Counted from the first letter of the stretch, positions 5,921 to 60,486 are shown. The stretch is 64,000 nt of DNA from an uncultured Caulobacterales bacterium (GCA_903840435.1 CAIMFV010000006.1:22415-86414), one strand, 5' to 3'. Translations and numbers: made by a program. Notes: generated by a model from the letters alone, not told the origin.

Positions 5921-5976
5921 TCCTTGGGCGGGGAAAGTCCGCCGACGCTGTCATTTAGGCGGGTCAGCCCCCGCTA

Positions 5977-27041: not shown

Positions 27042-27051
27042 CCTCAGGCCG

Positions 27052-29585: not shown

Positions 29586-29992
29586 TCCTCCTCGACACCA
29601 ACATCATCTCGGAGACCATGCGGCCGAACGGTGATCCGGCGGTGCTCGCTTGGCTCGACGCCCAAGCGGTTGAAACCCTATATCTTTCAACCATCACCGT
29701 GGCTGAGCTGCGATTTGGAGTTGCCGCGCTGCCGATTGGGGCTCGCAGACAAATCCTGCGCCGGGAGTTAGACGAGCGCCTCTTGCCGATCTTTGCGGGG
29801 CGCATCCTGTCGTTTTGCCTCGCCGCCGCCGACGCCTATGGGGATCTGCGCGCCAGCGCCCGCGCGGCAGGCAAGGCCATCCCGACAGCGGACGGCTATA
29901 TCGCCGCAATCGCAGTTGCGCACGGTCTGGCGGTTGCGACCCGCGATCGGAACCCCTTTGCCGCCGCTGGCCTCGCTGTGATTACGCCCTAG
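29582..29992 (+). CDS. vapC: Type II toxin VapC, PIN-domain ribonuclease (FitB-like)
   Basis: MILLDTNIISE (first acidic PIN residue), ...TRD near C-terminus; 136 aa. Confidence 0.9.
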   Translation: MILLDTNIISETMRPNGDPAVLAWLDAQAVETLYLSTITVAELRFGVAALPIGARRQILRRELDERLLPIFAGRILSFCLAAADAYGDLRASARAAGKAIPTADGYIAAIAVAHGLAVATRDRNPFAAAGLAVITP

Positions 29993-42380: not shown

Positions 42381-43325
42381 TCATGCCGATTGCGCAAACG
42401 CTTTCAACAACTGATGCGCGATGGCGACGGGAGGGGGGCAGAAGGCGCCTGCGAAGGTTCCGGCCATTAGCGACTTGGCCTCGTCTCGGGTGAACCAGCG
42501 CACGGCCTCGAGCTCGGTCTGGTCGGGATGGGCTTCGCCGTCCTCGATCTCGGCAATCAGCCCGATCATCAGCGAGTTTGGAAAGGGCCAGGGTTGAGAC
42601 GAATGGTAACGGACAGCCTTGGTGACGAGGCCTGCCTCTTCTTTCAACTCGCGGGCGCAGGCCTCTTCGATAGACTCGCCGGGCTCTAAAAAGCCTGCCA
42701 AGGCTGACCACATGCCCGTTGGCCAAACGGCTTGGCGGCCGACCAAACACTTGTCTCCGACCACGGGCAGCATGATGACGACCGGGTCGGTGCGTGGGAA
42801 ATGTTCAACCTGACAGGCCGGGCAGACCCGTTTCCAGCCGCCGTCAGCCACCTCGCTCGGTTGACCACAGGCGGCGCAAAACCGGTGGCGGCGACGCCAT
42901 TCAAACACGCCCTTAGCTGTGGCGGCAATGCCCGCCTCCTGGCCTGAGAGCACGGCGCCCAGCCCGCGCAATTCGCGAAAGACGCCAAAGCCGTTTAACG
43001 GGCCCTGGCTGGGATCGGCGGCGCCGTCCAAATCAATGGCGAAGACCGGCGTCTCCTTCCACAACCCAAGAAACAACAGGCGCTCAAGGCCACCCGCCAA
43101 CTCCTGGCCAAGGCCTGGGGCAATATAGGCCAGCCGGGGCGCTTGGGGCGGGCTCCCGGCAACGGTCTCTTCGACCAATATCTGACCATTCCACAGCGGT
43201 AGGGCCAAGGCGTCGGGATGGGCGAGCAGCTTGGCGACAACAGAAGGGTCGCTGCGTAATTCACTGGCGCGGTTCAAGGGATTGCCAGCGAACACATTGA
43301 TCAGGGACATGGTGAGACGCTCCAC
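42381..43325 (-). CDS. nudC: NAD(+) diphosphatase
   Basis: CxxC...CxxC zinc ribbon followed by Nudix box GFLEPGESIEEACARELKEEAG. Confidence 0.85.
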   Translation of the reverse strand: MERLTMSLINVFAGNPLNRASELRSDPSVVAKLLAHPDALALPLWNGQILVEETVAGSPPQAPRLAYIAPGLGQELAGGLERLLFLGLWKETPVFAIDLDGAADPSQGPLNGFGVFRELRGLGAVLSGQEAGIAATAKGVFEWRRRHRFCAACGQPSEVADGGWKRVCPACQVEHFPRTDPVVIMLPVVGDKCLVGRQAVWPTGMWSALAGFLEPGESIEEACARELKEEAGLVTKAVRYHSSQPWPFPNSLMIGLIAEIEDGEAHPDQTELEAVRWFTRDEAKSLMAGTFAGAFCPPPVAIAHQLLKAFAQSA

Positions 43326-43406: not shown

Positions 43407-44417
43407 TCAGCCCTTGGGGCGTCGCTTGTGTGGCTCACCCCGTTCGCGCGCTTCGGAGAGCAAAGGCTGATTGTCGAAAGTATAGCGCAGCAAGGTCGCC
43501 TGTTCGATATTGACCAGGATTCGACAGGCTGTGGCCGCTTCCTCCGGCGTTGGCGTCGGCCCAAAGGCGGCGGCAAGTTTCGGTGTATAGTTGTCGCATT
43601 GAGCACGCCGGTAGCGCACGAAGGCGGGCCCGCTCTGACGGAATTCGCGTTCTGCAATATCGACAAGGTTTTGGGCTTCATCCCAGTCGTCGAGCACCCG
43701 CCTTACCCGGCGTTTGGCGCTGGCGAGCCGCGCAAGACTAAGCTGCTCCTGGCGCTGCAAACGAGCTGATCGATCCTCGCTCGTGCCAACCCTCCGCCAG
43801 ATATCCACCAAACGATAGGGGCCGCGCGGGTCGTCGCGCCCTGACTTCACACGCATGGGAGCCATGCCGACGGTTTCACGCAGCATCGAGCGCCTGCGCA
43901 GGTCCATCCAAAATTGACAGGCCCAGACCGATCGCTCGATATGCCATCGGTTTCCGACAGCCGAATAACTCAGCCGGTCACAATTGGCGTTGCGAAGTCT
44001 CTCATAGGCTCGGCTGGCCCACATATCGGAACGCGCCAGGGCGTTGCGGGCCGGTAGGCTTGATGGCTGCGATTGGGCCAAGGACAAGATGGCGCGATTG
44101 ACGCGATCCAAATTTGGCGAAAAGTGCTGCTGAATCTCAAACAGGCATTTATCGATCCCAACCTCTGACAAAATTGGGCAACCCTTGACGTCCTCTAAAA
44201 TATCATAAGACTCTTTGTATAGAAATGGAGATTCCTTCATCAGATTTAGGCGTAATTCTTGACCATACAGTTTTGAAATTGGGAAAAAGGCGGCAAAAAT
44301 CGACAATAAAGCAAAGGTAATATTTGATTTATTTCTGATATGAGGCTGTAAAATTCTTGCATTGATCTGATTATATCCGAATATAATTCGTTCGATTGCC
44401 AGCTGTGTCGCCTTCAT
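43407..44417 (-). CDS. Family A paralog 0: secreted double Cys-pair DUF1311/LprI-like protein (candidate immunity/lysozyme-inhibitor-like)
   Basis: Start placed at MKATQ (ATG 44417); hydrophobic N-terminal anchor; C-terminal half about 80-90% identical to other A copies (AFVRYRRAQCDNYTPKLAAA..ACRILVNIEQATLLRY). Confidence 0.7.
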   Translation of the reverse strand: MKATQLAIERIIFGYNQINARILQPHIRNKSNITFALLSIFAAFFPISKLYGQELRLNLMKESPFLYKESYDILEDVKGCPILSEVGIDKCLFEIQQHFSPNLDRVNRAILSLAQSQPSSLPARNALARSDMWASRAYERLRNANCDRLSYSAVGNRWHIERSVWACQFWMDLRRRSMLRETVGMAPMRVKSGRDDPRGPYRLVDIWRRVGTSEDRSARLQRQEQLSLARLASAKRRVRRVLDDWDEAQNLVDIAEREFRQSGPAFVRYRRAQCDNYTPKLAAAFGPTPTPEEAATACRILVNIEQATLLRYTFDNQPLLSEARERGEPHKRRPKG

Positions 44418-44554
44418 TTTGTTGGCGAGGGGCGTGTCAGACGATCCAGTCGATTGGCGAGCGTTATTGCTCTTGCGGGCAGACTTGCCCTCTATGCTCG
44501 CAAGCGCGTCCGGCTGAAACCACCGCCGCCGACGGGGCGACTTTTGCCCCTCTT

Positions 44555-45484
44555 TCATCGCCTGTCGCCTCGGCTGTGACCCGGACCGCGATGGGATTGC
44601 GACATCAAGGTATGGTTGTCGAAAAAGAAGCGTAACAAGGTCGCCTCCTCGACATTGAGGAGGGTGCGGCACGCAATCGCCGCCGCCTCGGGGCTTGGCC
44701 CAAAGGCAAGGGCGGCGGCAAGTTTTGGCGTATAGTCCTCGCATTGCGCCTTACGGTAATGAAGAAAGGCTGGGCCACTACGATGAAAATCGCGCGCCGC
44801 CTTATCTACAAAATCTTGGTACTCGTCCCAGTCGTCCAGCACGCGTTGAACGCGAAGCTTGGCGCGCTGCAAACGTTGGAGGCTCAAAACTTCTTGGAAT
44901 CTCAAATTTTCCAATTGGTCCGGACCCGTTCCAACTGTGTACCACAGGTCCGCTAGGCGATAAGGACCGCGCGGCCGGTTGCGCCCAGGCCTGATCGGCA
45001 GCGGCGCATCCCCAACCGCTTCACGCAGGAGCGAGCGCCGGCGCAGGTCCAACCAAAATTGACACGCCCAGATGGATCGGGACGCGCGCCAGCGACTTCC
45101 GACGGCGGAATAACTCAGACGGTTACACGTGTCGTAACGGAAGTTTCGGTAGGCCTGGCCTGCCTTTTGTGCAGCGGACGATAAGGCGAGCTGGAGGGAA
45201 GCATCGCTTTGCTTGCTCAACGCATTGGCGAGGGTCCGTCGTTCGACCTTGTCGCGCATGGGCGAAAAATGCTGCGCAAGTTTGAGCAGGCATTGATCAA
45301 TGCCAACCTCGGAAAACGCGGGGCATCCCTGTACATCCGCCAGAACATCACCCGGCTCCAGGTACAGAAAGCGAACGTCTTCGCGTGATGATAGATGGAA
45401 TTTGAATGTAGTCGCGTGACAAATTGGCGAAAAGGAAGAAAATATCCATAAAATTATGAGAGTTATGTACAGGTATTTTTTCAT
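44555..45484 (-). CDS. Family A paralog 1: secreted DUF1311/LprI-like protein
   Basis: Signal peptide MKKYLYITLIILWIFSSFSPICHA encoded by AT-rich DNA; 4-bp overlap with family B gene upstream. Confidence 0.75.
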   Translation of the reverse strand: MKKYLYITLIILWIFSSFSPICHATTFKFHLSSREDVRFLYLEPGDVLADVQGCPAFSEVGIDQCLLKLAQHFSPMRDKVERRTLANALSKQSDASLQLALSSAAQKAGQAYRNFRYDTCNRLSYSAVGSRWRASRSIWACQFWLDLRRRSLLREAVGDAPLPIRPGRNRPRGPYRLADLWYTVGTGPDQLENLRFQEVLSLQRLQRAKLRVQRVLDDWDEYQDFVDKAARDFHRSGPAFLHYRKAQCEDYTPKLAAALAFGPSPEAAAIACRTLLNVEEATLLRFFFDNHTLMSQSHRGPGHSRGDRR

Positions 45485-46245
45485 GGATACAATCGAATAT
45501 AATCAAGTATATATTGAATTTTTTCTGGATAATGTGTTAGTGTTTTTGTATTATATTTTTGTTGTAACAAATATTTATCTATATTTTTCCAGCTCAAAAT
45601 CACCCGTTCGACCCTCGCCTTTTGCACCTTCACCCTTTGGTGCGGGCGCAGAAGGGATGATCCATTCAGTCGGCGGAGGTGATCGGTGGTGCTGCCATAG
45701 ATTTTGGCGATTTTATCGAGCGTGTCGCCTTTGGCAGCCTCGACTTCAAATATTGGCGCGCCCGGTGCAATGACGGTGCGCATATCCGACTGCGAGGCTA
45801 TGGAAAGGACGTATCCTATGCCCGCGCGAATATTGTCCTGCGGATTGGAGGAGGCGCGGGCTGCTAAGCCGTTTTGCCATTGTGGGGGGATGATCACCGT
45901 ACCAGCGCCCTCGGGTTTGAGGAGGTCGCGCAAGCCCCCGTCGCCCGAATTACCGATATGCATGGGGCGGCTGTTCCACGTGACGTCTCCCGGGTCGTTT
46001 TCCGTCCACATCATCGCCTTCATCAGGGCGAAATCTGGCGAGCGATAGCCCGCGACGCCGCGCAGATTTCGGTCGTACTCGCCGATGGCGCTGCGAATGG
46101 CGCTCTCGTGATCGTGCCAATGCGGTCCTGGTACAAATGTGTCTGTACCGTCCATCCATCCGGACAGCCCGTCTGAAATATTAGACGGGCGTGCAGGGCG
46201 TTGCACTTTTAAGTTGGCGCGATGTTTCAGCGTTGTTTCGACCAT
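45481..46245 (-). CDS. Family B copy 2: SLT-type lytic transglycosylase-like domain + C-terminal LysM; no signal peptide (candidate peptidoglycan-degrading effector)
   Basis: LMKAMMWTENDPGD...RPMHIGNSGD...QDNIRAGIGYVL resembles SLT motifs (AIAWQESxFNP / GLMQI / ENIRAGxxYL); VEAAKGDTLDKIAKIYGSTTDHLRRLNGSS = LysM. Confidence 0.75.
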   Translation of the reverse strand: MVETTLKHRANLKVQRPARPSNISDGLSGWMDGTDTFVPGPHWHDHESAIRSAIGEYDRNLRGVAGYRSPDFALMKAMMWTENDPGDVTWNSRPMHIGNSGDGGLRDLLKPEGAGTVIIPPQWQNGLAARASSNPQDNIRAGIGYVLSIASQSDMRTVIAPGAPIFEVEAAKGDTLDKIAKIYGSTTDHLRRLNGSSLLRPHQRVKVQKARVERVILSWKNIDKYLLQQKYNTKTLTHYPEKIQYILDYIRLYP

Positions 46246-46332
46246 GGGAGCTCCAGATTTTACGGAGCGCGCGACGCAAATCTGCAGTCAAGCGCGGGAA
46301 ACCCTAACCGTTAGCCTGACTTGCGACGGTCT

Positions 46333-46354
46333 CGCGACGTGACACGTCGTCGCG
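46333..46354. repeat. Conserved palindrome CGCGACGTGACACGTCGTCGCG (stem CGCGACG/CGTCGCG) 3' of family A gene, 5' of family B gene
   Basis: Near-identical copies at 47445-47466 and 48814-48835; related palindromes at about 50122-50134 and 51950-51962. Confidence 0.6.
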
Positions 46355-46363
46355 CATGTAGGT

Positions 46364-47284
46364 CTACCGGCGGCTGCGCGTGTCGCCGGGCTTGCGGTCT
46401 TGCGACATCAAGGGTTGGTCCTGGAAGTCGTAGCGCAGCAAGGTCGCCTCTTCGATATTGACCAAGATACGACAGGCCATGGCGGCCTCGTCCGGCATTG
46501 GCGTCGGTCCAAAGGCGGCGGCGAGTTTCGGGGTATAGTCGTCGCATTGAGCATGGCGGTAGCGCATAAAGGCGGGCCCGCTCTGACGGAAGTCGCGTTC
46601 TGCAATGTCGACAAGGTGTTGGGCTTCATCCCAGTCGTCCAGCACCCGTCTTACCCGGCGTTTGGCGCTGGCGAGCCGCGCAAGACTAAGCTGCTCCTGG
46701 CGCTGCAAACGGGCCAGTCGATCCTCACCCGTCCCGACCCTCCGCCAAATATCTACCAAGCGATAGGGGCCATGTGGTCCGAAACGCTTCGCCTTCACCC
46801 GCAGGGGGGCCTCGCCCACAGTTTCTCGAAGCAAGGATCGGCGATGCAGGTCCATCCAGAATTGGCAGGCTAAAATCTCTCGGATCGTATGCATCCGATT
46901 TCCGACGGCCGAATGACCCAAGCGATTGCAATTGATAAATCGAAGCCTGTCATAGGTCATCGCGGCACGGTGATCTGAGCGGGAAAGGGCGGCGTGATCG
47001 GCCGGACTTAATCCTCGTATTTGCGCCTTTGACAGCACCGCCCTCTCGGTATGCTTGAGGCTGAGAGAAAAGTGCTGCTGAATTTCGGCCAGACATGCAT
47101 CAATCCCAGTTCCAGAGAAGCTAGGGCAATCACGGACATCGTCAAGCACGTCAAAAGATTCTACATAAAGAAAGGGAGATTCGGTTGCAGATTTTACACT
47201 GAAACTGGATGTCATTGCGCGCGACGAAGGGCAATAACAAAGGATAATACATAAAATAATTTGGATTTTTTGGTAAATGTTCAC
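46364..47284 (-). CDS. Family A paralog 2: secreted DUF1311/LprI-like protein
   Basis: Signal peptide MNIYQKIQIILCIILCYCPSSRA; conserved C-terminal half. Confidence 0.75.
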   Translation of the reverse strand: MNIYQKIQIILCIILCYCPSSRAMTSSFSVKSATESPFLYVESFDVLDDVRDCPSFSGTGIDACLAEIQQHFSLSLKHTERAVLSKAQIRGLSPADHAALSRSDHRAAMTYDRLRFINCNRLGHSAVGNRMHTIREILACQFWMDLHRRSLLRETVGEAPLRVKAKRFGPHGPYRLVDIWRRVGTGEDRLARLQRQEQLSLARLASAKRRVRRVLDDWDEAQHLVDIAERDFRQSGPAFMRYRHAQCDDYTPKLAAAFGPTPMPDEAAMACRILVNIEEATLLRYDFQDQPLMSQDRKPGDTRSRR

Positions 47285-47444
47285 GGACTAAATTTCACAA
47301 GCTTGCCAAGGTGTTTCTGGCCCATGTCAAGGTGTTTCTGGCCCATGTGTCGTTTTTCCCTCCATCCATGGGGCAATTCGGTTGAAATAATGTGAGGAGG
47401 GAACGAGGGAGTTTGCGAGCAGCAAACATGGTCGAGTTTGGTCT

Positions 47445-47466
47445 CGCCACGTGACACGTCGTCGCG
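47445..47466. repeat. Copy of conserved palindrome (CGCCACGTGACACGTCGTCGCG) downstream of family A paralog 3
   Basis: Sequence identity to 46333-46354 motif. Confidence 0.6.
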
Positions 47467-47475
47467 CAGCTTGGT

Positions 47476-48495
47476 TTAGCGCCGGTTGCGACTTTCACCG
47501 GGCTTGCGGTCTTGCGACATCAGGGGTTGGTGCGCGAAATCGTAGCGCAGCAGGGTCGCCTGTTCGATATTGACCAGGACGCGGCAGGCTGTGGCGGCTT
47601 CCTCCGGCGTTGGTGTCGGCCCAAGGGCGGCGGCGAGTTTCGGGGTATAGTCGTCGCATTGGGCGTGGCGGTAGCGCACGAAGGCCGGCCCGCTCTGACG
47701 GAAGTCGCGGTCGGCAATATCGACAAAATCTTGCCATTCCTCCCAATCGTCGAGCACGCGGCGGACCCGTCGCCGGGCGCTGGCCAATCGCCTCAGGCTG
47801 GCGGCTTCCTGGGATTTCAATTTCGATAATCGACCCGCTCCCGCGCCCGCGAGGCGCCAGATATCGGTCAAGCGATAGGGGCCGTGCGGACCGCCGTGGC
47901 CCGGCTTGATCCGCATCGGCGCCTCACCGGCCGTTTCTTGCAGCAGCGACCGCCGATGCAGGTCCATCCAAAATTGGCAGGCATAAACCCGCCTCAGCGT
48001 ATGCATCGTCGCGCCAGCCGCTGCGTGGCTCAGGCGATCACAATTGCTGTTCCGAAGCGCAAAATAGCTTGAAACGGCTTGCTTCTGAGACAGAAGGAGG
48101 GCGTCTTGCCCGCCAGTCCCGGTTGCACTTTGGGTGGCGCGACCCAGCACCTCTGAATCGACACGGATCAACCGTCCCGCAAGCCGTTGTTGGATTTCTT
48201 CAAAGCAAGCGTCATAATCGGTTTCAGAATATATTCCGCAACCCGTGACGTCGTTAATGACATCCCATGGTTCCCTATAGATAAATGGTGAATGGTAAAG
48301 GGCAGTCATATTTGGATGCCAGAGCTCTACATGCTTAGACAAAGAGATCGAATGGCAACACACTGAAATAATAATTATGGAAAAATATATTAGACTATGG
48401 ATATATTTTAATGTAATCGAGAATATATTGCAATTTTGCCGCGTAATCAACATCTGGATTCCCATTATAGTTTGATTGGAGGGAATTTTTATCAA
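47476..48495 (-). CDS. Family A paralog 3: secreted DUF1311/LprI-like protein (start uncertain; ORF overlaps remnant B gene by about 100 nt)
   Basis: Hydrophobic N-terminal region IYFSIIIISVCCHS; C-terminal half almost identical to paralog 4. Confidence 0.7.
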   Translation of the reverse strand: MIKIPSNQTIMGIQMLITRQNCNIFSITLKYIHSLIYFSIIIISVCCHSISLSKHVELWHPNMTALYHSPFIYREPWDVINDVTGCGIYSETDYDACFEEIQQRLAGRLIRVDSEVLGRATQSATGTGGQDALLLSQKQAVSSYFALRNSNCDRLSHAAAGATMHTLRRVYACQFWMDLHRRSLLQETAGEAPMRIKPGHGGPHGPYRLTDIWRLAGAGAGRLSKLKSQEAASLRRLASARRRVRRVLDDWEEWQDFVDIADRDFRQSGPAFVRYRHAQCDDYTPKLAAALGPTPTPEEAATACRVLVNIEQATLLRYDFAHQPLMSQDRKPGESRNRR

Positions 48496-48772
48496 TTGGT
48501 CTCCAGCCGAATATAACTCTCATAACTTTCGCCTTCTGCACTTTCACCTTTTGATGAGGGCGTAGAGCGGACGAGCCATTAAGTCGCCTTAAGTGATCGG
48601 TCGTGCTGCCATAGTGTCGGGCGATGGCGTCAAGTGCGTCACCTTTCGCCGCCTCGATCTCACAAATGCGCGTGCAGGGCGTTGCACTTTTAAGTTGGCG
48701 CGTCGTTTCAGCGTTGTTTCGACCAAGGGAGCTCCAGATTTTACGGAGCGCGCGACGCAAATCTGTAGTCAA
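48395..48772 (-). pseudogene. 5'-truncated family B remnant retaining only the LysM/C-terminal part
   Basis: EAAKGDALDAIARHYGSTTDHLRRLNGSS...QYILDYIKIYP matches C-terminal 100 aa of intact B copies; SLT part missing; conserved B 5' leader still present at 48748-48797. Confidence 0.6.
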
Positions 48773-48813
48773 GCGCGGGAAACCCTAACCATTAGCCTAG
48801 CTTGCAATAGTCT

Positions 48814-48835
48814 CGCCACGTGACATTGCGTCGCG
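48814..48835. repeat. Copy of conserved palindrome (CGCCACGTGACATTGCGTCGCG) downstream of family A paralog 4
   Basis: Sequence similarity to 46333-46354 motif. Confidence 0.55.
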
Positions 48836-48844
48836 CTCCATCGA

Positions 48845-49762
48845 CTACCTCCGGTTGCGACTTTCACCGGGCTTGCGCTCTCGCGACATCAGGGGTTGAT
48901 CCTCGAAGTCGTAGCGCAGCAAGGTCGCCTGTTCGATATTGACCAGGATGCGACAGGCTGTGGCGGCTTCCTCCGGCGTTGGCGTCGGCCCAAGGGCGGC
49001 AGTGAGTTTCGGGGTATAGTCGTCGCATTGAGCGCGCCGGTAACGCACAAAGGCGGGCCCGCTCTGACGGAAGTCGCGGTCGGCAATATCGACAAAATCT
49101 TGCCATTCGTCCCAATCGTCGAGCACGCGGCGGACCCGTCGTCGGGCGCTGGCTAATCGCCTCAGGCTGGTGGCTTCCTGGGATTTCAATTTCGATAATC
49201 GATCCGCTCCCGCGCCCGCGAGGCGCCAGATGTCGGTCAAGCGATAGGGGCCGTGCGGACCGCCGCGGCCCGGCTTGATCTGCATGGGCGCCTTACCAGC
49301 CGTTTCTTGCAGCAGCGACCGCCGATGCAGGTCCATCCAAAATTGGCAGGCGTGAACCTGCCTCAGCCTATGCATGGTTCCGCCAGCCGCTGCGTGGCTC
49401 AGCCGATCACAATTGATCAATCTTAGCTGCTTATAGGCGCGGGCCGCCCGCCTTCCAGACAAGATGAGAGCCGTCGTTGCGGAAAGGTCGGTTAGCCGCG
49501 TCTGCGCCTTCGACAGTATCGCTTGATCAAGGCGGCCCAATTTCGGTTCAAAACGGTGTTGAATTGCAATGAAGCATCTGTCTATGCCAGCTTCAGAATA
49601 GGATGGGCAACCTTCAATATCATTTAATATATCGTAGTATTCTCTGTATAAAAAGGGCGACTCTCGCAAAAAATTGAGACGGAGCTCCGGATTATGGGCG
49701 TCAACTGGGGAAAAATGGGAAAATGATATAAATATAAATAGAATAAAAATTGCAAATTTCAT
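48845..49762 (-). CDS. Family A paralog 4: secreted DUF1311/LprI-like protein
   Basis: Signal peptide MKFAIFILFIFISFSHFSPVDA; C-terminal half near-identical to paralog 3. Confidence 0.75.
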   Translation of the reverse strand: MKFAIFILFIFISFSHFSPVDAHNPELRLNFLRESPFLYREYYDILNDIEGCPSYSEAGIDRCFIAIQHRFEPKLGRLDQAILSKAQTRLTDLSATTALILSGRRAARAYKQLRLINCDRLSHAAAGGTMHRLRQVHACQFWMDLHRRSLLQETAGKAPMQIKPGRGGPHGPYRLTDIWRLAGAGADRLSKLKSQEATSLRRLASARRRVRRVLDDWDEWQDFVDIADRDFRQSGPAFVRYRRAQCDDYTPKLTAALGPTPTPEEAATACRILVNIEQATLLRYDFEDQPLMSRERKPGESRNRR

Positions 49763-50167
49763 GGGTAAAATCCGAGATGTTCAAGTTAATATTTCCATAT
49801 TCATCTAGATGTGACGCTATGCGCCCTTAAGTGATGTCTGGGGTGGAGCGGGGACGTTCCATTGAATGCCCGGCGAGGGGCGGCGGTGCTGCCATGGGTT
49901 TGGCTGATCCCATCCGAGGTATCCCCGAGACCTCCCGCCCCAGTGCCTTTGGGCCTAGTGGTTAAGGGCGCGAGGGGCAATTGGTCGATACTTTTGCCAA
50001 GCGAGTCGGGGATCACGGGTAAAGATGCCGCCCCTCTTAGATCGCCAGCCGTGCTGAGGCCTTCCAACAGCTTGGGGGAAGATATCTGAACCTCCATGGA
50101 CCATCGTTCGTCCAGATGACATGACGTCGCGTCACTCAAATTCCGAAGGTCGTCGAGCGGGCGGAGG
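49763..50167 (-). pseudogene. Highly decayed family B remnant (no intact reading frame)
   Basis: Nucleotide similarity to B LysM region (ggtgctgccatgggtttggctga vs ggtgctgccatagattttggcga of intact copy) but frameshifted; occupies the position where a B gene precedes each A gene. Confidence 0.4.
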
Positions 50168-51145
50168 TTATCCGTTTTGACGTCGTGAGTGTCCCTCGCC
50201 GCGCTTGCGCGCCTCAGAAAGCAGGGGTTGTCCGTCAAACGTGTAGCGCAGCAGGGTCGCCTCTTCGATATTGACCAGGATGCGACACGCCATGGCCGCT
50301 TCCCTCGGCGTCGGCCCCCTGCCAAGAGCGGCGGCAAGTTTTGGTGTGTAGTCGTCGCATTGGGCCTGACGGTAGCGCGCCAGGGCGGGCCAGCTTTGCC
50401 GGACGTCCTTCTCTGTGAGTTCAAAATATTTTTGCATCTCATCCCAGTCGTCCAGCACCCGCCTCACCCGCCGTTTGGCGCGCGCGAGCCGCGCGAGGCT
50501 GAGCCGTTCTTGAGCCTGTAAACGGGTCAATCGGTCGTCGCCCGAACCGGCGCGCCGCCAAATGTCCGCCAAGCGGTAGGGGCCGTGCGGGCCGTTACGC
50601 CTGGGCTTTACCCGCATGGGGGGCTCGCCATCCGTTTCTCGCAGCAGAGACCGTCGATGTAGGTCCATCCAAAATTGGCAGGCCCAAACCCCGCGCAGGG
50701 TATGCATTCTGCCGCCGTTTGATGAGCGTTGGAGATGATCACAATTTATCTGGCGTAGGTGAAGATAGGCCAGGGAGGCGCTTTGTTTTGCCTTTGACAG
50801 GATGTCTAGGGATGCTTTTTCGCCTGCCTCAGAGGCGGCGTTAGCGAAAACCTCTGCATCGACCTGGTTCAACTTGTCGGAAAGATGTTGGACAATCTCC
50901 TCAAAACAGGCATCGAGATCGCCTTCAGAATAAATTCCACATCCCGGTACATCATCAATTACGTCGTCCGGCTCTTGATAGAGAAATTTCGATTCATCTA
51001 ATAATTTAAAATCAGGGTGCCACAAGGCAATATGTTTCGCCCAAGCTGGACTCTGATACATAAATAAAAAACAAAGACAAAACAAAACGCCGATTTTAAG
51101 GGTATATTTTAATGTAATCAAGTATATATTGAACTTTTTCTTCAT
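50168..51145 (-). CDS. Family A paralog 5: secreted DUF1311/LprI-like protein; start overlaps 3' end of family B copy 1 by about 50 nt in another frame
   Basis: Signal peptide KIGVLFCLCFLFMYQSPAWA; conserved C-terminal half. Confidence 0.75.
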   Translation of the reverse strand: MKKKFNIYLITLKYTLKIGVLFCLCFLFMYQSPAWAKHIALWHPDFKLLDESKFLYQEPDDVIDDVPGCGIYSEGDLDACFEEIVQHLSDKLNQVDAEVFANAASEAGEKASLDILSKAKQSASLAYLHLRQINCDHLQRSSNGGRMHTLRGVWACQFWMDLHRRSLLRETDGEPPMRVKPRRNGPHGPYRLADIWRRAGSGDDRLTRLQAQERLSLARLARAKRRVRRVLDDWDEMQKYFELTEKDVRQSWPALARYRQAQCDDYTPKLAAALGRGPTPREAAMACRILVNIEEATLLRYTFDGQPLLSEARKRGEGHSRRQNG

Positions 51146-51860
51146 AGTGCGCTCCTGCTTTTCGATTGTATTTATCTTTCAAGAGTTTTTTATCAATTGT
51201 GTCCCAGCCGAATATCACTCTCATAACTTTCGCCTTCTGCACTTTCACCTTTTGATGAGGGCGTAGAGCGGACGATCCATTTAGTCGCCTTAAGTGATCT
51301 GTCGTGCTGCCATAGTGTCGGGCGATGGCGTCAAGTGTGTCACCTTTCGCGGCCTCGATCTCAAATATGGGTGCACCTGGCTCCACAACCGTCCTGAGGT
51401 CCGACTGCGAGGCCACGACAAGGACATAGCCAATCGCTGCGCGAATGTTATCCTGCGGGTTCGAAGTGGCACTCGCGGATAACCGTTCCTGCCACTGAGC
51501 TGGGACGATGATCTTTCCCGCTCCGTTTGGCCTGAGAACGTCGCGCAAGCCGGGATCACCGGAATTACCAATTTGCATGGGCCGTCTGTTCCAACTCGGA
51601 TCGCCGGGGTCGTTTTCCGCCCAAATTATGGCTTTCATCAACGAAAAGTCGGGGGAGCGATATCCCGCGACGCCGCGCAGATTTCGATCATAGTCTTTGA
51701 TGGTCGTCCGAATCTCACTTTCATAATCCCGCCAGTGCGGTCCGGGAACGTTTCTATCAACGCCGTCCATCCACTTCGCCAAACCCGGCGGAACATTGGC
51801 CGAGCGCACGGGTCGTTGCACCTTGGGTTTTGCAGGATGTTTAACCGCTGTTTCGGCCAT
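51096..51860 (-). CDS. Family B copy 1: SLT-type lytic transglycosylase-like + LysM protein, no signal peptide; first gene of the array
   Basis: Start placed at MAETAVKHPAKPKVQRP (ATG 51860) matching start of copy 2; ORF-track extension to 52214 would overlap SRP RNA and is rejected. Confidence 0.75.
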   Translation of the reverse strand: MAETAVKHPAKPKVQRPVRSANVPPGLAKWMDGVDRNVPGPHWRDYESEIRTTIKDYDRNLRGVAGYRSPDFSLMKAIIWAENDPGDPSWNRRPMQIGNSGDPGLRDVLRPNGAGKIIVPAQWQERLSASATSNPQDNIRAAIGYVLVVASQSDLRTVVEPGAPIFEIEAAKGDTLDAIARHYGSTTDHLRRLNGSSALRPHQKVKVQKAKVMRVIFGWDTIDKKLLKDKYNRKAGAHYEEKVQYILDYIKIYP

Positions 51861-52038
51861 TGGGGCTCCAGAGCTCATGGAGCGCGCGGCGCAATTTTGC
51901 GACCCCGCGCACGAAACCCTAATTTCTAGCCTCCCTCGCATCGCCCTTGCCATGTGACATGGCGTCGCGGCGCGGTGGTGATGGCGCGGGATGCGAGCGC
52001 TTACGGCCCTTGCTAAGCGCAGGCTTGCGCGCGATATA

Positions 52039-52144
52039 GGCGGTGGAGACTGGCGCCGGGCGCAGCCCTCGCCAACCCGGTCAGGTCCGGAAGGAAGCAG
52101 CCGTAACGAGTTTCGCGGCGGGTCGGCGTCCAGTCTCCACCCCA
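52039..52144 (+). ncRNA. ffs: Signal recognition particle RNA (4.5S-type SRP RNA)
   Basis: Contains conserved domain IV sequence GGUCAGGUCCGGAAGGAAGCAGCC; terminal helix GGUGGAGACUGG...CCAGUCUCCACC; canonical position immediately upstream of dnaX. Confidence 0.8.
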
Positions 52145-52167
52145 CACTCGCAAGCCGAAATAGGGCG

Positions 52168-54042
52168 ATGGCCGCAGACGATCCGACGCCCGACATCGAC
52201 GCCGACGACCCCAAGGCTTTGGACGGTCCAGACGCGCGCGATGACTTGACCTCTGATATGTTCGGCGGCCCGCCACCGAAAGAGGAGCCGCCGGTCGAAC
52301 TTCAGGCCGAACCGCGCGAACCGCTGACTGACCCATCCGGCGCCGCCTATCAGGTCTTGGCGCGCAAATACCGGCCGCGCACCTTTGAGGACCTGATCGG
52401 CCAAGAGGCCATGGTGCGCACCCTTACCAATGCGTTTGCGTCGGGTCGGATTGCCCATGCCTTTATGCTGACCGGGGTGCGCGGCGTCGGCAAGACCACC
52501 ACGGCGCGCTTGCTGGCGCGGGCCTTGAACTATGAGACCGACCAGATTAACCGCCCCTCAGTGGCCTTGAGCCACGAAGGCCGCCATTGCCGGGCCATTA
52601 TCGAAGGTCGGCACATGGATGTGCTGGAGCTCGACGCCGCCAGCCGCACCAAGGTTGATGAGATGCGCGAGCTGTTGGACGGCGCGCGGTATTCGCCGGT
52701 GGAGGCGCGCTATAAGGTCTATGTCATCGACGAAGTGCACATGCTGTCGACGGCCTCGTTCAATGCCTTGTTGAAGACCCTGGAAGAGCCGCCGCCGCAC
52801 GTCAAATTCATCTTCGCCACTACCGAAATTCGCAAGGTGCCGGTGACCATTTTGTCGCGCTGTCAAAGATTTGATCTGCGCCGGGTCGAGCCGGACGTGT
52901 TGATCCAGCGGCTGAAATCGATTTGCGACGCTGAAGATGTTCGGGTCGCCGAGGAAGGGCTGGCCCTGATTGCCCGGGCTGCGGAAGGCTCGGTGCGCGA
53001 CGCCCTGTCGCTACTCGATCAAGCCATTGTTCAGACCGATCGCGGCCAGACCACGCCCGCCGCCGTGGTGCGCGACATGTTGGGGCTCGCGGACCGCGCT
53101 GCGACCATTGCCCTCTTTGAGCAGGTAATGGCGGGCGCCGCCGACGCAGCGCTGCAGCAGTTTCGCAGCCTCTATGCCTTTGGGGCCGATCCGGTCGTGG
53201 TGGTCAATGATCTGATGGATCACGCCCACGGGGCTTCGGTGTGCAAGATGCTCGGGCCTGATGCCTTGGTCTTGCCCAAGGACCAAGCGGCCCGTTTGGC
53301 GGCCTTGGGCGCTGAGGCCTCGGCGGGCGCCTTGTCGCGGGTTTGGCAAATGCTGTTGAAAGCTCATGACGAAGCCCGCCGCGCCCCCGATCCAAAGGCT
53401 GCGGTCGAGATGGCGCTGATCCGCATCTGTTACGCCGCTGACCTACCCGGCCCGGAAGAGGCGTTGAAACGCCTGCGTGGCGGTGAAGATCCAGCCCGTG
53501 TGCTGGCCCAGGAGGGCCCGTCGCCTGCGGGGGGCGCACGGGGGGCGTCAAGTTCTGGGCTGGGCGGAAATGCAGCCCTGGCCCGCAGCACGGTTGCGCC
53601 TGCGCCGCGGGCGGAAGCCAAGCGGGTACTAAACGCCTTTCAAGATGTGGTGCGCCTGATTGAAGACAAACGCGACGTCACATTGAAACACGATGTCGAA
53701 CGGTTTGTTCGCTTGGTCGACTTTAAGCCCGGACTGATCACCTTTGAACCTGCGCCGGGCGCGCCCGCCAACCTCACTCAGCGCCTGACCGGACGGCTGC
53801 GCGAGTGGACGGGCGATCGGTGGATGGCCGAGATCAAGGGCGGCGGAACCGAAAGCACCTCCGAACGGGAGCGCCGGGAAGAGCGCGACGCCCGCACGGC
53901 GCTCGAGGCCGAGCCCTTTGTCCAGGCGGTGTTTGAGGCTTTTCCGGGGGCCGAGATCATCGCGTTTCGCCAGCGTCCGGCCGTGGCGGCGACGCCTGAG
54001 ACTGAAACCGGCGATGAGGGTGATGAGGGAGACGCCGAATGA
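52168..54042 (+). CDS. dnaX: DNA polymerase III subunits gamma/tau
   Basis: Walker A GVRGVGKTT, DEVHML, SRC box (LSRCQRF); start placed at MAADDPTPD downstream of ffs. Confidence 0.9.
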   Translation: MAADDPTPDIDADDPKALDGPDARDDLTSDMFGGPPPKEEPPVELQAEPREPLTDPSGAAYQVLARKYRPRTFEDLIGQEAMVRTLTNAFASGRIAHAFMLTGVRGVGKTTTARLLARALNYETDQINRPSVALSHEGRHCRAIIEGRHMDVLELDAASRTKVDEMRELLDGARYSPVEARYKVYVIDEVHMLSTASFNALLKTLEEPPPHVKFIFATTEIRKVPVTILSRCQRFDLRRVEPDVLIQRLKSICDAEDVRVAEEGLALIARAAEGSVRDALSLLDQAIVQTDRGQTTPAAVVRDMLGLADRAATIALFEQVMAGAADAALQQFRSLYAFGADPVVVVNDLMDHAHGASVCKMLGPDALVLPKDQAARLAALGAEASAGALSRVWQMLLKAHDEARRAPDPKAAVEMALIRICYAADLPGPEEALKRLRGGEDPARVLAQEGPSPAGGARGASSSGLGGNAALARSTVAPAPRAEAKRVLNAFQDVVRLIEDKRDVTLKHDVERFVRLVDFKPGLITFEPAPGAPANLTQRLTGRLREWTGDRWMAEIKGGGTESTSERERREERDARTALEAEPFVQAVFEAFPGAEIIAFRQRPAVAATPETETGDEGDEGDAE

Positions 54043-56216: not shown

Positions 56217-58430
56217 TTGAGGTCGTATCGCGTGATTACAGGTAGGCGTTTTGTCGGGTCTCAAAGCGGGCGCCGATATCGCACTTCGCTCTATGCCAGT
56301 GTGGCGCTGAACCTCGTCCTGCTCTCACCAGCACACGCGGCCTTGCGGGCGCAGGCCGCCCAGGTCGATCCCAACGCGCAAAGCGAAGTGATTTCGCCCA
56401 GCCTCACGCACGGCGCCTCGTCAACCTTGGCGCCGGATATTTTGAGCTTGCCGACCGGGGCGGTGAATTCGCCACCGCCCAAGTCCGCCCCGACCCTCCC
56501 CGCGCCGTCGACGCTTCCGCTGACACCCCCTGCGGTCCAGGACGTCCCCCCGCCGGTCATGGCGACACACGCGCCAGCACCGCCAGAGATAGCGCCGCTT
56601 CGAGACCCGCCTTCAGCCGCTCTGGCTGAAACACCGCGCCTCGATCCGGTTGCGTCACCGCCACAGACTGAACTCGCCCATGTTGCGGCGCCTCCTCCGG
56701 CGGAGCTTGAAATGTCAAGCGCGCCAGCTCAGGAGGTCACGCCAGCGGGCGGCGATCCGCCGGCCTTGGTGTTCGATATTGGCGGACCGGCCGAGCCGAT
56801 TTTGCGCGGCGCCTCTGGCGGCTCCGGCGACCCTCCGACCATGGTCTTCTCCGATCAGAACGCTCCGCGCAAAATGGATCTTGCAGCGAAGCGGCCCGCG
56901 CCTGCGGACCAGGGGGGCGATCCGGCGCCGAAATCCTTGCGTCTCGCACGCAAGGGGTCTGACGCGATTTTGCCGGTGCTCGGGTCGGCCGATCTCAGTT
57001 CGGTAATTGATGTCGTCTTCCCCGCGACTGGGCCAAACGCGGAGCGTGCAGACGGCGGTCGCACGGCGGATCGCAGGCTGGCCATTATTCCGCTCACGCC
57101 ACCTTCGCCGGATGAGCCCGACGATTCCCGCGAAACCATCGACACCCTGACCCTAGGCGACTATGTGGCCAGATCGGTGCGCCACAGCGAAGATTTAGCC
57201 GCTGACGGACAGGCCCTGACCGCCGCCAAGTATCAGGCGATCAACCGCTTGACTCAGCTTGGGCCCCATTTCGAGTTTCACGCCGATCAAGGTCACGAGC
57301 ACTCCTATTCCTCAGTCGGCACAACGCCCGTCGGCTTTCCGAACCATTTGCGCACCGATGCGCTGGCGACGATGAGCCAACCCCTGTTCGATCCGGTGGT
57401 CTTGGCCTCGCTGGACCGCGACCGGGAGGATGTGCGCGCCGCAGAAATGAAACGCCGCATGACCGAAGTGAATGTCGCCTATGAGGCGGTGTCGGCCTAT
57501 TTTGATCTGTTGGACGCAAGGCTTCAGCTTGAGCTCGCCTCGGGTCATTTGAAGCGGATGACCGATCTGGTCGGCTACATGACGCGCCGTACCGACCTCG
57601 GCGGCGCCAGTGATGCTGATCTTGAACGCGTCAAGGTTGTGGCGCTCACCGCCGAACGCAGCGAGATCGATGCAAAAGGGGCATTGGACGCCGCCCTGTC
57701 CACCCTACACCGACTGACAGGCATTACCGCCGTTCAACTTGCTGCACCGAGCAGCGTGCAACCGTCCTTGCCTGACGATTCCGACACCGCCTTTGCCCGA
57801 CTTGTCAAAACCAACCCTGATGTCCGCTGGGCCTATATCCAAATCAAGATTGCCCATGACGACAGCCTTGCGAGTTTTGCCCAGACCCTCCCGAAGGTCA
57901 CTTTCGACTTGGGGCGTTTTGTCGGCGTCAATGCCAGTGGCGCCAAGGGCTCGACGGTTGATGATCGCGCGCTGATCTCCGCGGTGTGGTCATTCGGTGC
58001 AGGCTCAGAGCTTGCGCAAGCCCGCTCCCAAGCCGCCCATCAGAATGAAATGAAGCACCGCTATTACAGCATTTTGCGGACAGCCAACGATCACCTGCAT
58101 ACGGCCTATTTGACCTTAAAGAGCCTTGATGGCCAACGCCTCGTCGCGTGGAAAGAGCTTCGTGCCAATAACAAGGTGACGGCGGCATTTGACGAACAGT
58201 TGTTCGCCGCCAATCGATCCCTCCTCGACGTACTCGATACCTACCAAAAATATTACCAGTCTAAAGCTAACCTCGTGCATCTCACGATCACCCAGATCAA
58301 GACCGCCTATCAGGTGCGCCAGTTGATCGGCGATCTGAACCAAGACAGTCTTGGCGACGACGCGATCCTTTCTGCCTCCGAGGTGGCGCAAGCGTCTGCC
58401 TCGGATGCTCCGGTGCGGAGCGCCCACTAA
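56217..58430 (+). CDS. TolC-family outer-membrane channel protein with long Pro/Ala-rich N-terminal extension
   Basis: Signal peptide; about 250-aa low-complexity PAPS-rich region; C-terminal 450 aa with TolC-like alternating coiled-coil/beta pattern; start uncertain. Confidence 0.55.
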   Translation: MRSYRVITGRRFVGSQSGRRYRTSLYASVALNLVLLSPAHAALRAQAAQVDPNAQSEVISPSLTHGASSTLAPDILSLPTGAVNSPPPKSAPTLPAPSTLPLTPPAVQDVPPPVMATHAPAPPEIAPLRDPPSAALAETPRLDPVASPPQTELAHVAAPPPAELEMSSAPAQEVTPAGGDPPALVFDIGGPAEPILRGASGGSGDPPTMVFSDQNAPRKMDLAAKRPAPADQGGDPAPKSLRLARKGSDAILPVLGSADLSSVIDVVFPATGPNAERADGGRTADRRLAIIPLTPPSPDEPDDSRETIDTLTLGDYVARSVRHSEDLAADGQALTAAKYQAINRLTQLGPHFEFHADQGHEHSYSSVGTTPVGFPNHLRTDALATMSQPLFDPVVLASLDRDREDVRAAEMKRRMTEVNVAYEAVSAYFDLLDARLQLELASGHLKRMTDLVGYMTRRTDLGGASDADLERVKVVALTAERSEIDAKGALDAALSTLHRLTGITAVQLAAPSSVQPSLPDDSDTAFARLVKTNPDVRWAYIQIKIAHDDSLASFAQTLPKVTFDLGRFVGVNASGAKGSTVDDRALISAVWSFGAGSELAQARSQAAHQNEMKHRYYSILRTANDHLHTAYLTLKSLDGQRLVAWKELRANNKVTAAFDEQLFAANRSLLDVLDTYQKYYQSKANLVHLTITQIKTAYQVRQLIGDLNQDSLGDDAILSASEVAQASASDAPVRSAH

Positions 58431-59131
58431 TGGCCGGGGGGTCCGATCCCCAAGGCGGGCAGAACTATTGGCCCGGCTTCGTCGACGCCTTGTCGAACAT
58501 GGTCATGGCGATGATTTTCCTCGTCCTGATCTTTGCAGCGGTGCTGTTCAACGCCATGCAAAATACCAGTCGCGCTGCCAATATGAAGAACACCGAAGCG
58601 CTGGAGCGGAAAACCAAAGAAAACGATGAGTTGCGCAAGCTTGTCGCAACGCTTTCCACGCAATTGCAAAGCCGATCCTGTGCCGTTCCGGCGGTCAGCG
58701 CCCAAGGCATCGCCGCGCCCGATAGTTTAATCAAAAGCGCTGAAACCGTCGCCAATGAAGGGCAGTTTCAAGCCGATACCAACGCGAAGGGGCCCTTGCC
58801 GCCGACGGTACGGGGGACCGGTGCCTTCTTGACCGTCGACTACCACTCACAATCCGTCACCTTGGACACCGCCGCCAAGGCTGCCCTCGATGCTGCCTTA
58901 GCGCGCGACCATATCGGTCGCGGGGTGGGTCGGGTCGAGATTATTGCCGAACAGGTCTCCGCCACCGGAGGCGCGACCGACGCCGAGCGTAATGCCTTCT
59001 TCCGCGCGCTGTCACTGCGCAATCAGTTTCTGGCCGAAGGGTGGAAGCCCAGCGACATCGTCGTGAAGCTGCCCTATCGCGAGAACGGGTCCGGTCCGGC
59101 GCGCGCCTTCATCCGCATATCGCAAAATTGA
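58430..59131 (+). CDS. MotB/OmpA-family protein (N-terminal TM anchor, C-terminal OmpA-like peptidoglycan-binding domain)
   Basis: WPGFVDALSNMVMAMIFLVLIF resembles MotB N-terminus; C-terminal OmpA-like block; start codon overlaps TolC-like stop. Confidence 0.6.
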   Translation: MAGGSDPQGGQNYWPGFVDALSNMVMAMIFLVLIFAAVLFNAMQNTSRAANMKNTEALERKTKENDELRKLVATLSTQLQSRSCAVPAVSAQGIAAPDSLIKSAETVANEGQFQADTNAKGPLPPTVRGTGAFLTVDYHSQSVTLDTAAKAALDAALARDHIGRGVGRVEIIAEQVSATGGATDAERNAFFRALSLRNQFLAEGWKPSDIVVKLPYRENGSGPARAFIRISQN

Positions 59132-59144
59132 GTAAGCCCGGCCG

Positions 59145-60473
59145 ATGAGTACACCCGTGTTAAACCTGTCCAGCAGGACCCGCCGCACGACCGGAGATTG
59201 GATTTCGGTTTGGTTCGATCTTGAGCGCGAGCATACGCCCTTACCCGCCCTGTTTGCGGCGGTTTTCGGCCTCGCGGCCTTTGTCACCTATGCCTGCCTC
59301 GCCAAGGTCGACCGAGTGGTGCAGGGCCAAGGGCGGGTGGTGCCGAGCGAAAGCACCCAGACGATCCAGCACCTGGAAGGGGGCATGATTTCGCAGATTC
59401 TGGTTTCTGAGGGCCAGACGGTGAAAAAGGGCGACCTGCTGGCGCGGGTTCGCGACCTCGATGCCACTGATGCTTTGAATGAAAACCAGGTCAAGGGGCT
59501 TGCTCTTCGTGCCCGAGTGGCGCGGTTGGAAGCCGAAGCGAGTGGCGCAGGCGCGGTGCAAATTCCTCCTGGCCTCAGTGCGCAAACGCCAGAAATGGCG
59601 TCAGAATTGGCAACTTTTCGTGCCCGCCGTTTGACCCGAGACGAGGCGGCCGCCAGCCAAAGAGCTGCACTCGATCAAAAGCGCGGCGAGTATGGCGAGG
59701 CTAATCAAAAACTGACCAATTATCGGGCCGAGCATGAGACCGCGCTGAAACAGCTGTCGGTAATGACCAGTCTGCGCAACGCTCATGCCGCATCGCAGAT
59801 CGAGCTTCTCGACGCCCAGGCCCGCGAGCAACGGCTTGACAGTCTGATCCGTGAAACCTCAGCGCTGCTGCCGGGTTTGCGCGCCGCCATTGATGAGGCG
59901 TCGTCGCGGTTGAGCCAGGGGGAGGCGCAATTCCGATCCGAGGCAGCGGCGGAACTGACCGCTTCCAAGGTTGAGTTGATGCGCTCTGATGTGGACAGGC
60001 GCGGCGTCGCGGATCGGCTAAGCCGAACCGATGTGCGGGCCCCGACCGACGGGGTGGTCAACCACATATTGGTGAAAACGGTCGGCGGGGTCATTCGCCC
60101 TGGCGAGCCCTTGATGGAATTGACCCCTATGGGCGGGCCGCTGGTGATTGAGGGGCGGGTTCGGCCGGGAGATCGGGGAGAATTGCGACCGGGTCTGGAT
60201 GCGTCGGTGCGGATCAACGCCTATGACTATGGCGCGCTGGGCGGGCTTCCCGCCCGGCTTGACGATATCAGCGCCGATACCTTGGCCGATGAGCGTGGCG
60301 AGCGATATTATCGATTGAAATTAACCGTACGCCGGGAAAAGCTTTCCGGCCTTACGGTCTATCCGGGGATGACCACCACGGTCAATGTGGTGGTGGGGCG
60401 TCGCGCCATCATCCAATATTTGCTCTCGCCTGTGTTTCACTTCGCTGACGTGGCGCTGAAAGAGGCCAAGTAG
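59145..60473 (+). CDS. HlyD-family type I secretion periplasmic adaptor (membrane fusion protein)
   Basis: N-terminal TM, biotinyl-lipoyl-like hairpin (VVPSESTQTIQHLEGGMISQILVSEGQTVKKGDLLARV), long coiled coil, C-terminal beta domain. Confidence 0.8.
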   Translation: MSTPVLNLSSRTRRTTGDWISVWFDLEREHTPLPALFAAVFGLAAFVTYACLAKVDRVVQGQGRVVPSESTQTIQHLEGGMISQILVSEGQTVKKGDLLARVRDLDATDALNENQVKGLALRARVARLEAEASGAGAVQIPPGLSAQTPEMASELATFRARRLTRDEAAASQRAALDQKRGEYGEANQKLTNYRAEHETALKQLSVMTSLRNAHAASQIELLDAQAREQRLDSLIRETSALLPGLRAAIDEASSRLSQGEAQFRSEAAAELTASKVELMRSDVDRRGVADRLSRTDVRAPTDGVVNHILVKTVGGVIRPGEPLMELTPMGGPLVIEGRVRPGDRGELRPGLDASVRINAYDYGALGGLPARLDDISADTLADERGERYYRLKLTVRREKLSGLTVYPGMTTTVNVVVGRRAIIQYLLSPVFHFADVALKEAK

Positions 60474-60486
60474 CTGCGCGACCTGA

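Follow-up and report, generated by a model that had tools for sequence, protein, structure and literature searches.

Organization of the locus

We analysed a 64,000-nt stretch of DNA (CAIMFV010000006.1:22415-86414), referred to below as the window, and describe here an 8.5-kb tandem array of two paralogous gene families, B and A, which we read as a probable set of effector and immunity genes. All coordinates are those of the whole window; gene positions were taken from an open reading frame (ORF) scan and were cross-checked with independent gene calls on the public contig. The array spans positions 43407-51860 and is flanked by dnaX and by the gene of a NUDIX hydrolase, with all of its genes on the minus strand, as found by the ORF scan and the independent calls alike. 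It contains two intact B genes, three decayed B copies and six A genes (Table 1), in the transcription order B1-A5-(B relic)-A4-(B with internal deletion)-A3-A2-B2-A1-(weak B relic)-A0. An earlier note on this DNA had reported a minus-strand array, and the gene positions and order it gave were reproduced by the ORF scan, by tblastn and by the independent gene calls. The same note had listed two decayed copies of B, both of which tblastn recovers, but had overlooked a third, weak relic upstream of A0.

Paralogs within the array were recognized at E-values down to 1e-126 for B and 1e-129 for A, far past chance. The two intact B proteins are 71% identical, and the six A proteins show 46-57% identity to A5 and share six invariant cysteines. 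B1 and A5 overlap by 50 nt, and the B2 stop overlaps the A1 start by 4 nt, which suggests translational coupling; a B gene that encodes no signal peptide is thus followed directly by a gene that does. A B gene, or a clear B remnant, precedes four of the six A genes; upstream of A0 lies only a weak relic and upstream of A2 none, an arrangement that suggests a B-A pair as the ancestral unit. In the ORF scan and tblastn searches no intact B was found upstream of A4, A3, A2 and A0, which are orphan immunity genes in this sense. For A0, the sole nearby ATG (44417) puts a 33-aa extension ahead of the hydrophobic segment.

The GC content of the array is 55.1%, compared with 61.8% in the remaining window. 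A promoter scan was uninformative, with 12 promoter-like sites against 5.1 ± 2.3 expected, mostly within the AT-rich signal-peptide regions, and a terminator scan of the array gave counts at chance level.

Table 1. Genes and gene remnants of the array and its two boundaries. Effector and immunity roles are predicted.
Feature	Position	Strand	Basis and remarks
dnaX	51991-54042	+	Array boundary
B1, intact effector, 254 aa	51096-51860	-	ORF scan; transglycosylase/lysozyme-like domain with apparently inserted LysM, no signal peptide, no Cys
A5, immunity protein, 325 aa	50168-51145	-	Signal peptide and two LprI-like helical bundles
B relic, LysM region only, upstream of A4	49726-49926	-	tblastn with B2: E 2.8e-4, 31% identity, 81 aa; non-coding gap from A5 to A4
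A4, orphan immunity protein, 305 aa	48845-49762	-	ORF scan
B3-delta, catalytic part deleted, 125-aa ORF	48395-48772	-	tblastn; LysM and tail remain, overlaps A3 start
A3, orphan immunity protein, longest ORF 339 aa	47476-48495	-	Real start probably internal
A2, orphan immunity protein, 306 aa	46364-47284	-	ORF scan
B2, second intact effector, 254 aa	45481-46245	-	ORF scan, tblastn
A1, immunity protein, 309 aa, most divergent A copy	44555-45484	-	ORF scan
Weak relic of B 3' end, in-frame fusion upstream of A0	44313-44510	-	tblastn with B1: E 0.002, residues 174-239
A0, last immunity gene, 336 aa from ATG at 44417	43407 to about 44417	-	ORF scan
NUDIX hydrolase gene	42381-43325		Other array boundary

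B is a divergent lytic transglycosylase-like protein

The 254-aa B proteins contain no cysteine and their N-terminus is not hydrophobic (Kyte-Doolittle 12-aa maximum 0.3), in agreement with the earlier statement that B has no export signal. An AlphaFold2 model of B, built from a shallow alignment of the five closest homologs (mean pLDDT 80.6), has a predicted lysozyme-like fold in which the catalytic Glu and the ordered motifs can be placed. In an alignment of 60 diverse members of the B family, Glu82, Gly98, Asp102 and Tyr239 are invariant, so that the predicted catalytic Glu is present in B; its lack had been named in the earlier note as fatal to the proposal made there. The consensus of the 60 members reads K-A-M-x-W-T-E-S-G-G, R-P-M-Q-I-G, N-I-R-A-G-I-A-Y-L-L and then, after LysM, Y-N-G-x-G-D-x-x-Y; we take this motif order to be that of the family 1 lytic transglycosylases. 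Judged from the secondary structure of the model and from the alignment, LysM seems to interrupt the catalytic domain ahead of its last motif, on a beta-hairpin stalk.

A Pfam scan of B detected LysM alone (E 6e-6). The profile of the B family gave a weak match to MltE around the catalytic region (E 0.01), and sub-threshold SLT matches were found in 16 of the 60 relatives, the best at E 5.6e-4. The earlier description of B as an SLT+LysM protein therefore stood for LysM by Pfam itself, while the SLT part failed there and had to be assigned from fold and profile evidence. Each B protein thus combines a LysM domain with a lysozyme/transglycosylase-like domain that carries a conserved Glu, and on the fold, motif and profile evidence B is a divergent protein of the lytic-transglycosylase/lysozyme fold with an apparently inserted LysM. 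It differs from the family 1 lytic transglycosylases (Slt70, MltE, MltD, MltF; PF01464) in having no signal peptide, in a LysM domain that, from the motif order and the model, seems to lie between motifs three and four and not to be appended, and in not reaching the Pfam SLT threshold. By sequence, B does not belong to the Tge1 (Tse3) or Tge2 families of type VI secretion system (T6SS) muramidase effectors.

When 1.84 billion representatives of 50%-identity clusters were searched exhaustively with a profile, 191 B representatives came up at E <= 1e-30, mostly of 235-255 aa and matched over their full length. The impression of a near-unique family, left by a word-index search that returned five proteins, was a sensitivity artefact overturned by this result. 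N-terminal extensions of 60-250 aa that match no Pfam family are present in several of the homologs, and one protein of 514 aa (P0033) carries, as a fusion, an eCIS_core/DUF4157 domain (E 3e-31) N-terminal to its B-family domain (residues 249-484).

A is a two-domain relative of LprI-type immunity proteins

All A proteins have strongly hydrophobic N-termini (Kyte-Doolittle 12-aa maximum 2.4-3.1), as expected of signal peptides. An AlphaFold2 model of A, from a shallow alignment of 10 sequences (pLDDT 81), shows a signal helix followed by two three-helix bundles. The C-terminal domains of the six proteins average 73% identity (59-93%) and the N-terminal domains 49% (36-60%). These values fit the divergent N-terminal halves described earlier; the accompanying claim that the C-terminal halves are almost identical was overstated.

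Pfam and NCBIfam scans of A and B yielded LysM and sub-threshold LprI/UmoC hints only, which by themselves neither confirm nor refute the domains that had been proposed. More was learned from the genes that adjoin B homologs in other organisms (see below). Every A C-terminal half matches the partners of about 145 aa encoded there (BLASTP E down to 7e-10), and in A1 both halves match partners of the LprI type (BLASTP E 3e-8 and 1e-4). When the A family was compared with these LprI-type partners by hhalign, the C-terminal domain aligned with a probability of 96% (E 2e-9) and the N-terminal domain with E 5e-5; no signal was obtained against the unrelated, beta-rich second family of partners. One of the LprI-type partners, from Massilia, is a true member of PF07007 (E 2.4e-11). 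Because both domains of A are homologous to these partners, we conclude that A is a tandem two-domain derivative of an LprI-type immunity protein. The sequence profiles and the model together indicate that A is homologous to bona fide LprI/DUF1311 members and is likely to share their fold, so that the earlier assignment of LprI-like domains holds by fold and profile evidence and falls below threshold in Pfam.

The A family is narrow. A word-index search found about 10 proteins, all from a few related metagenome-assembled genomes; a profile-based word-index search found no wider family, and a scan of JGI metagenomes returned none. A sequence search of the PDB with the A profile likewise gave nothing, and there the fold search alone was informative.

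Effector decay and comparison of sister strains

Alignment by tblastn showed that in B3-delta residues 1-19 of B (48670-48726) run into residues 161-254 (48398-48679) with a change of reading frame, and that residues 20-160, the catalytic part, are gone. We compared the shared dnaX-NUDIX site in the contigs L004, L005, L008 and L009 with the window, whose own contig is L007. The content of the array at this site varies between strains. In L004 and L005, B1 is cut to residues 162-254 and the B2-A1 module is absent, which leaves no intact effector in the available sequence; the A genes are kept. L008 and L009 encode a third effector in intact form, P0002 (76% identity to each of B1 and B2), and L008 carries a relic similar to the LysM relic at 49726-49926 of the window.

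B3-delta shares 95.6% identity with the C-terminus of the intact P0002, and between A3 and the gene that directly follows P0002 in L008 and L009 the identity is 91-92%. These identities indicate that the strain of the window lost an effector and kept its immunity gene, and that sister strains still encode the effector. The next A gene of L009, the second, is the counterpart of A2 at 87% identity. We thus have an array of orphan immunity genes for which a cognate effector is intact in other strains. Truncations at about residue 161 of B were found at 48395-48772 of the window, at 9769-10047 of L004 and at 6719-6997 of L005, and represent at least two independent events; in both, the retained 3' part of B, from about residue 161, overlaps the start of the downstream A gene.

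Selection and recombination within the array

The ratio of nonsynonymous to synonymous substitution rates (dN/dS) is 0.09-0.15 for B1 against B2, and 0.14-0.41 over the two structured domains for all pairs of A genes. A0 is also under purifying selection (dN/dS of 0.14-0.30 across the two domains against the other A genes). The low values for both families imply that the genes are maintained by selection. In two pairs of A genes, synonymous divergence is five- to seven-fold lower in the C-terminal than in the N-terminal domain (0.20 vs 0.99 for A4/A3, and 0.33 vs 2.5 for A2/A0), which points to gene conversion or recombination within the array. GC content rises steeply along each A gene: it is 28-36% over the first 120 nt, 48-60% over the N-terminal domain and 56-66% over the 3' half.

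Partner genes of B homologs in other organisms

We collected 26 genome loci with B homologs from Burkholderia, Paraburkholderia, Massilia, Duganella, Achromobacter, Cupriavidus, Caulobacter, Yokenella, Acidobacteria and others, together with 25 further loci from metagenomes. At 19 of the 26 genome loci a gene on the same strand overlaps the end of B or begins within about 10 nt of it, and at least 15 of these 19 are signal-peptide genes of about 130-150 aa that belong to two unrelated partner families. One is of the LprI type; the other, of about 140 aa, is beta-rich, has several Cys and an F-T-G-x-F-x-G-T-G-R-x-C motif and has no Pfam match (loci L003, L011, L015, L019, L020, L022, L028 and L031). 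A gene of either family follows B directly at 17 of the 25 metagenome loci, six of them with the LprI type and 11 with the beta type, and at L065 (4027-5790) four beta-type partner genes stand in tandem.

In Massilia horti and at two metagenome loci, hcp lies immediately upstream of B. In Yokenella regensburgei the gene order is TssM, TssA/VasL, Hcp, B, immunity, immunity, which places the B homolog among T6SS genes.

Three loci carry distant B-like genes (29% identity) in prophage-like, contractile-tail regions: L027, L039 and L040, the last two being IMG/VR contigs. In L027, from Commensalibacter intestini, the B-like gene (5875-6696) has head genes on one side and a tail-sheath gene on the other, with no LprI partner. 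At another locus, L001, a contig from a metagenome-assembled genome that has a B/LprI pair, a 186-aa gene and then a 504-aa gene (2817-4893), a probable pair, lie about 1 kb beyond the gene that follows B. The 504-aa gene carries the XVIPCD domain of Xanthomonas-type effectors of the type IV secretion system (T4SS), which suggests that L001 is an effector island serving more than one secretion system.

Comparison with described effector-immunity pairs

In the Etse4/Etsi4 pair of E. coli O157/O55, reported in 2026, periplasmic Etse4 was shown to be toxic and the DUF1311 antidote Etsi4 to rescue the cells (PMC12981562). B1 and B2 match a 198-aa E. coli O55:H7 gene located after hcp at BLASTP E-values of 1.4e-15 and 2.6e-17 over 188 aa, and window B matches the Yokenella homolog after hcp at E 4e-31; both intact B proteins are thus homologous to a described family of LysM-transglycosylase T6SS effectors. 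Since the O55:H7 layout, with hcp, a nonsense-split B homolog and then a DUF1311 gene, matches the published order hcp1-etse4-immunity, we equate it with the described pair.

Both the E. coli effector and B contain the catalytic motif W-T-E-N-D and, after a LysM, the tail N-Y-N-G-G-G-D. In both organisms a signal-peptide DUF1311/LprI gene is directly downstream of the effector, and in both an effector has been inactivated with its immunity gene retained. There are also clear differences. Window B is only 25-28% identical to the E. coli protein; the E. coli pair follows hcp inside a T6SS cluster, whereas the array is at the dnaX-NUDIX site with no secretion genes nearby; Etsi4 has a single LprI domain (149 aa), whereas the A proteins have two (305-339 aa); and one pair there contrasts with two effectors and six immunity genes here.

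A second pair, SED_RS06235/SED_RS06230 or 'LysM/LysMI', was predicted in 2022 as a bicistronic effector-immunity pair of the SPI-19 island of Salmonella Dublin (PMC8867033). Its effector of about 290 aa has a LysM and, by HHpred, a transglycosylase domain, and its partner is a 146-aa signal-peptide LprI protein (PF07007) (PMC8867033). Compared by the published description, this pair resembles ours in domains and gene pairing, and a Salmonella record matches B1 at 32% identity by tblastn. It differs in being a prediction only, inside a T6SS island, with a single-domain immunity protein and no array.

More generally, DUF1311 is counted among T6SS immunity domains (PMC12135965). Hcp islands of Pantoea carry orphan LprI immunity genes (PMC9796082), and runs of orphan immunity genes have been read as what effector replacement leaves behind or as a safeguard against the effectors of competitors (PMC9796082; bioRxiv 10.64898/2026.08.01.741415). 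The window shares with the Pantoea islands a run of immunity genes with no adjacent effectors and the use of LprI proteins against lysozyme-like effectors. It differs from these and from orphan arrays in general in being outside a T6SS cluster, in consisting of one family, and in having effector relics visible between the copies.

The earlier view that the locus does not belong to a described system is therefore not upheld: B is homologous to an hcp-linked E. coli gene, and the pair matches Etse4/Etsi4 and the one predicted in SPI-19. The kind is already described. What is new is the lineage-restricted two-domain LprI immunity protein, its sixfold expansion, the visible effector relics between the copies, and a chromosomal site with no secretion genes within about 84 kb.

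Proposed function and alternatives

Taken together, the data make it probable that the locus is an array for interbacterial antagonism, with two live glycan-cleaving effectors, three decayed ones and six periplasmic immunity proteins, and with the T6SS as the likeliest means of delivery. Homology, gene coupling and strain comparison give good support to the polymorphic effector-immunity array with orphan immunity genes that had been suggested from the layout. The proposed pairing of a lysozyme-fold enzyme with an inhibitor fold is likewise supported, B being of the lysozyme superfamily and A a periplasmic protein of the LprI fold.

B, whose sequence contains no signal peptide, would be made in the cytoplasm and delivered to the periplasm of neighbouring cells, judging from the context of its homologs most likely as Hcp-carried T6SS cargo. 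In the target cell, LysM may hold B on the glycan strand. Glu82 would be the catalytic acid with which the MurNAc-GlcNAc backbone is cut, as the fold, the motifs and the toxicity of the E. coli homolog suggest. The A proteins would be exported by Sec and disulfide-bonded, and each is expected, from its homology to Etsi4 and the strict gene coupling, to bind and block a variant of B. The extra A genes would protect against the effector variants of sister strains, a point for which there is direct evidence, A3 being the partner of the effector deleted here and intact elsewhere. The repeated truncation at about residue 161 would abolish toxicity and spare the 3' end, which is shared with the start of the immunity gene downstream.

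Several observations weigh against this reading. By Pfam, SLT (PF01464) gave no match to B1 or B2 at E <= 1, and LprI/DUF1311 (PF07007) matched only A4 and A1 (E 0.5-0.6, a score of about 11 bits where the cut-off is 22) and none of the other A proteins. Both structure models derive from the shallow alignments of 5 and 10 sequences. The window B proteins have Glu-Asn where the classical SLT enzymes have Glu-Ser, a variant that is also present in the toxic E. coli homolog. Toxicity of B, glycan cleavage and A-B binding are attributed to the window proteins by sequence, model and analogy. The weakest point for this organism is delivery by T6SS and Hcp, which is argued by analogy. A search for secretion genes in the window and 10 kb on each side (about 84 kb) found housekeeping genes only, with none for a T6SS, a T4SS or another injection system. 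What is more, hcp is adjacent in 4 of the 51 B-family loci fetched, the eCIS_core/DUF4157 fusion occurs in one B homolog, and distant relatives occur in prophages. The small number of hcp links, together with this fusion and these relatives, indicates that the B family is not tied to one delivery machine, and the B toxin module apparently serves more than one delivery system.

The lack of T6SS genes leaves some room, though limited, for the same effector-immunity array with an exit other than the T6SS, such as an extracellular contractile injection system (eCIS) or a particle resembling a phage tail, type I export, vesicles or cell lysis, or for an array that serves mainly as a defensive store of immunity genes. 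Consistent with these alternatives are the N-terminal eCIS_core on a B homolog, the distant B-like genes beside tail-sheath genes in prophages, and the retention of A genes in L004 and L005, with no intact B in their available sequence. They are also favoured by a cluster 4-10 kb from the array (56217-61464) that encodes an OEP outer-membrane factor, a 233-aa protein, an HlyD/AprE-like adaptor and an ABC ATPase, and by a metagenome-assembled genome of Azoarcus, where genes for an ABC exporter and an OEP protein are found upstream of B at a distance of a few hundred bases. However, dnaX-ybaB-recR lies between the window cluster and the array, and the cluster is retained in sister strains whatever their array and is syntenic in strains whose arrays differ. 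Moreover, the genes of T6SS cargo effectors are commonly distant from the apparatus, and hcp is the sole direct linkage seen for close members of the B family. In a related and also rather unlikely version, the host has no T6SS at all, and either the B module is delivered by a different route or the array is purely defensive, with the two-domain A widening specificity. The divergent, low-GC N-terminal bundle would then recognize effector variants, and in the C-terminal bundle gene conversion would maintain uniformity.

An effector-immunity array accounts better for the locus than would an endogenous wall-remodelling system, in which B is a lytic transglycosylase of the cell itself and the A proteins are periplasmic regulators or inhibitors, comparable to the Ivy or MliC type. 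The lytic-transglycosylase fold with LysM fits such a role, as does LprI, a known lysozyme inhibitor fold. Nevertheless, B cannot reach its own wall because it has neither signal peptide nor lipobox; it is deleted or absent in close relatives in which A persists; the family is sporadic, and other hosts substitute different partner families; and the GC content of the array is below that of the host. On these grounds we reject a housekeeping role as very improbable. We give hardly any credence to a remnant of prophage lysis cassettes, with B as endolysin and A as a secreted accessory protein: endolysins likewise have no signal peptide and the 29%-identity relatives do lie between head and tail-sheath genes, but no phage genes are near the array, B1 and A4 match no PHROG family, A belongs to the LprI immunity family and is neither holin nor spanin, and sixfold amplification under purifying selection is not expected of a decaying prophage.

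Other features of the window

Outside the array, a 414-aa ORF on the minus strand (27738-28982) has no Pfam match and corresponds, at near full length, to the PADLOC candidate defence family PDC-S54 (E 8e-137). It lies in a low-GC patch at about 27000-29000 (50-51%, compared with about 62% in the flanks). Two overlapping ORFs of 84 and 136 aa on the plus strand (29331-29992) adjoin this gene and are, from their sequences, a putative antitoxin/PIN-toxin pair of the VapB/VapC type. A further ORF on the minus strand, beside pgi (1931-3946), encodes 671 aa (620 aa in the call on the public contig) and has no Pfam match. As to the host, a thiolase gene searched against plasmids matched Methylobacterium, Rhizobium and Microvirga at 72-74% identity, which suggests an alphaproteobacterium.

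Significance

The general picture of interbacterial warfare loci is unchanged by this locus, which is real but fairly ordinary. Through it, a toxin/antidote family whose described members all come from T6SS islands of enterobacteria gains an environmental and probably alphaproteobacterial case. The family is broad, with about 190 representatives of 50%-identity clusters (E <= 1e-30) and at least two unrelated families of immunity proteins. As a record of evolution it is unusually clear: effectors were cut at the same point and their antidotes kept, and a sister strain still encodes the effector whose antidote alone remains here. The two-domain LprI protein might, in addition, offer a testable case of broadened immunity specificity.

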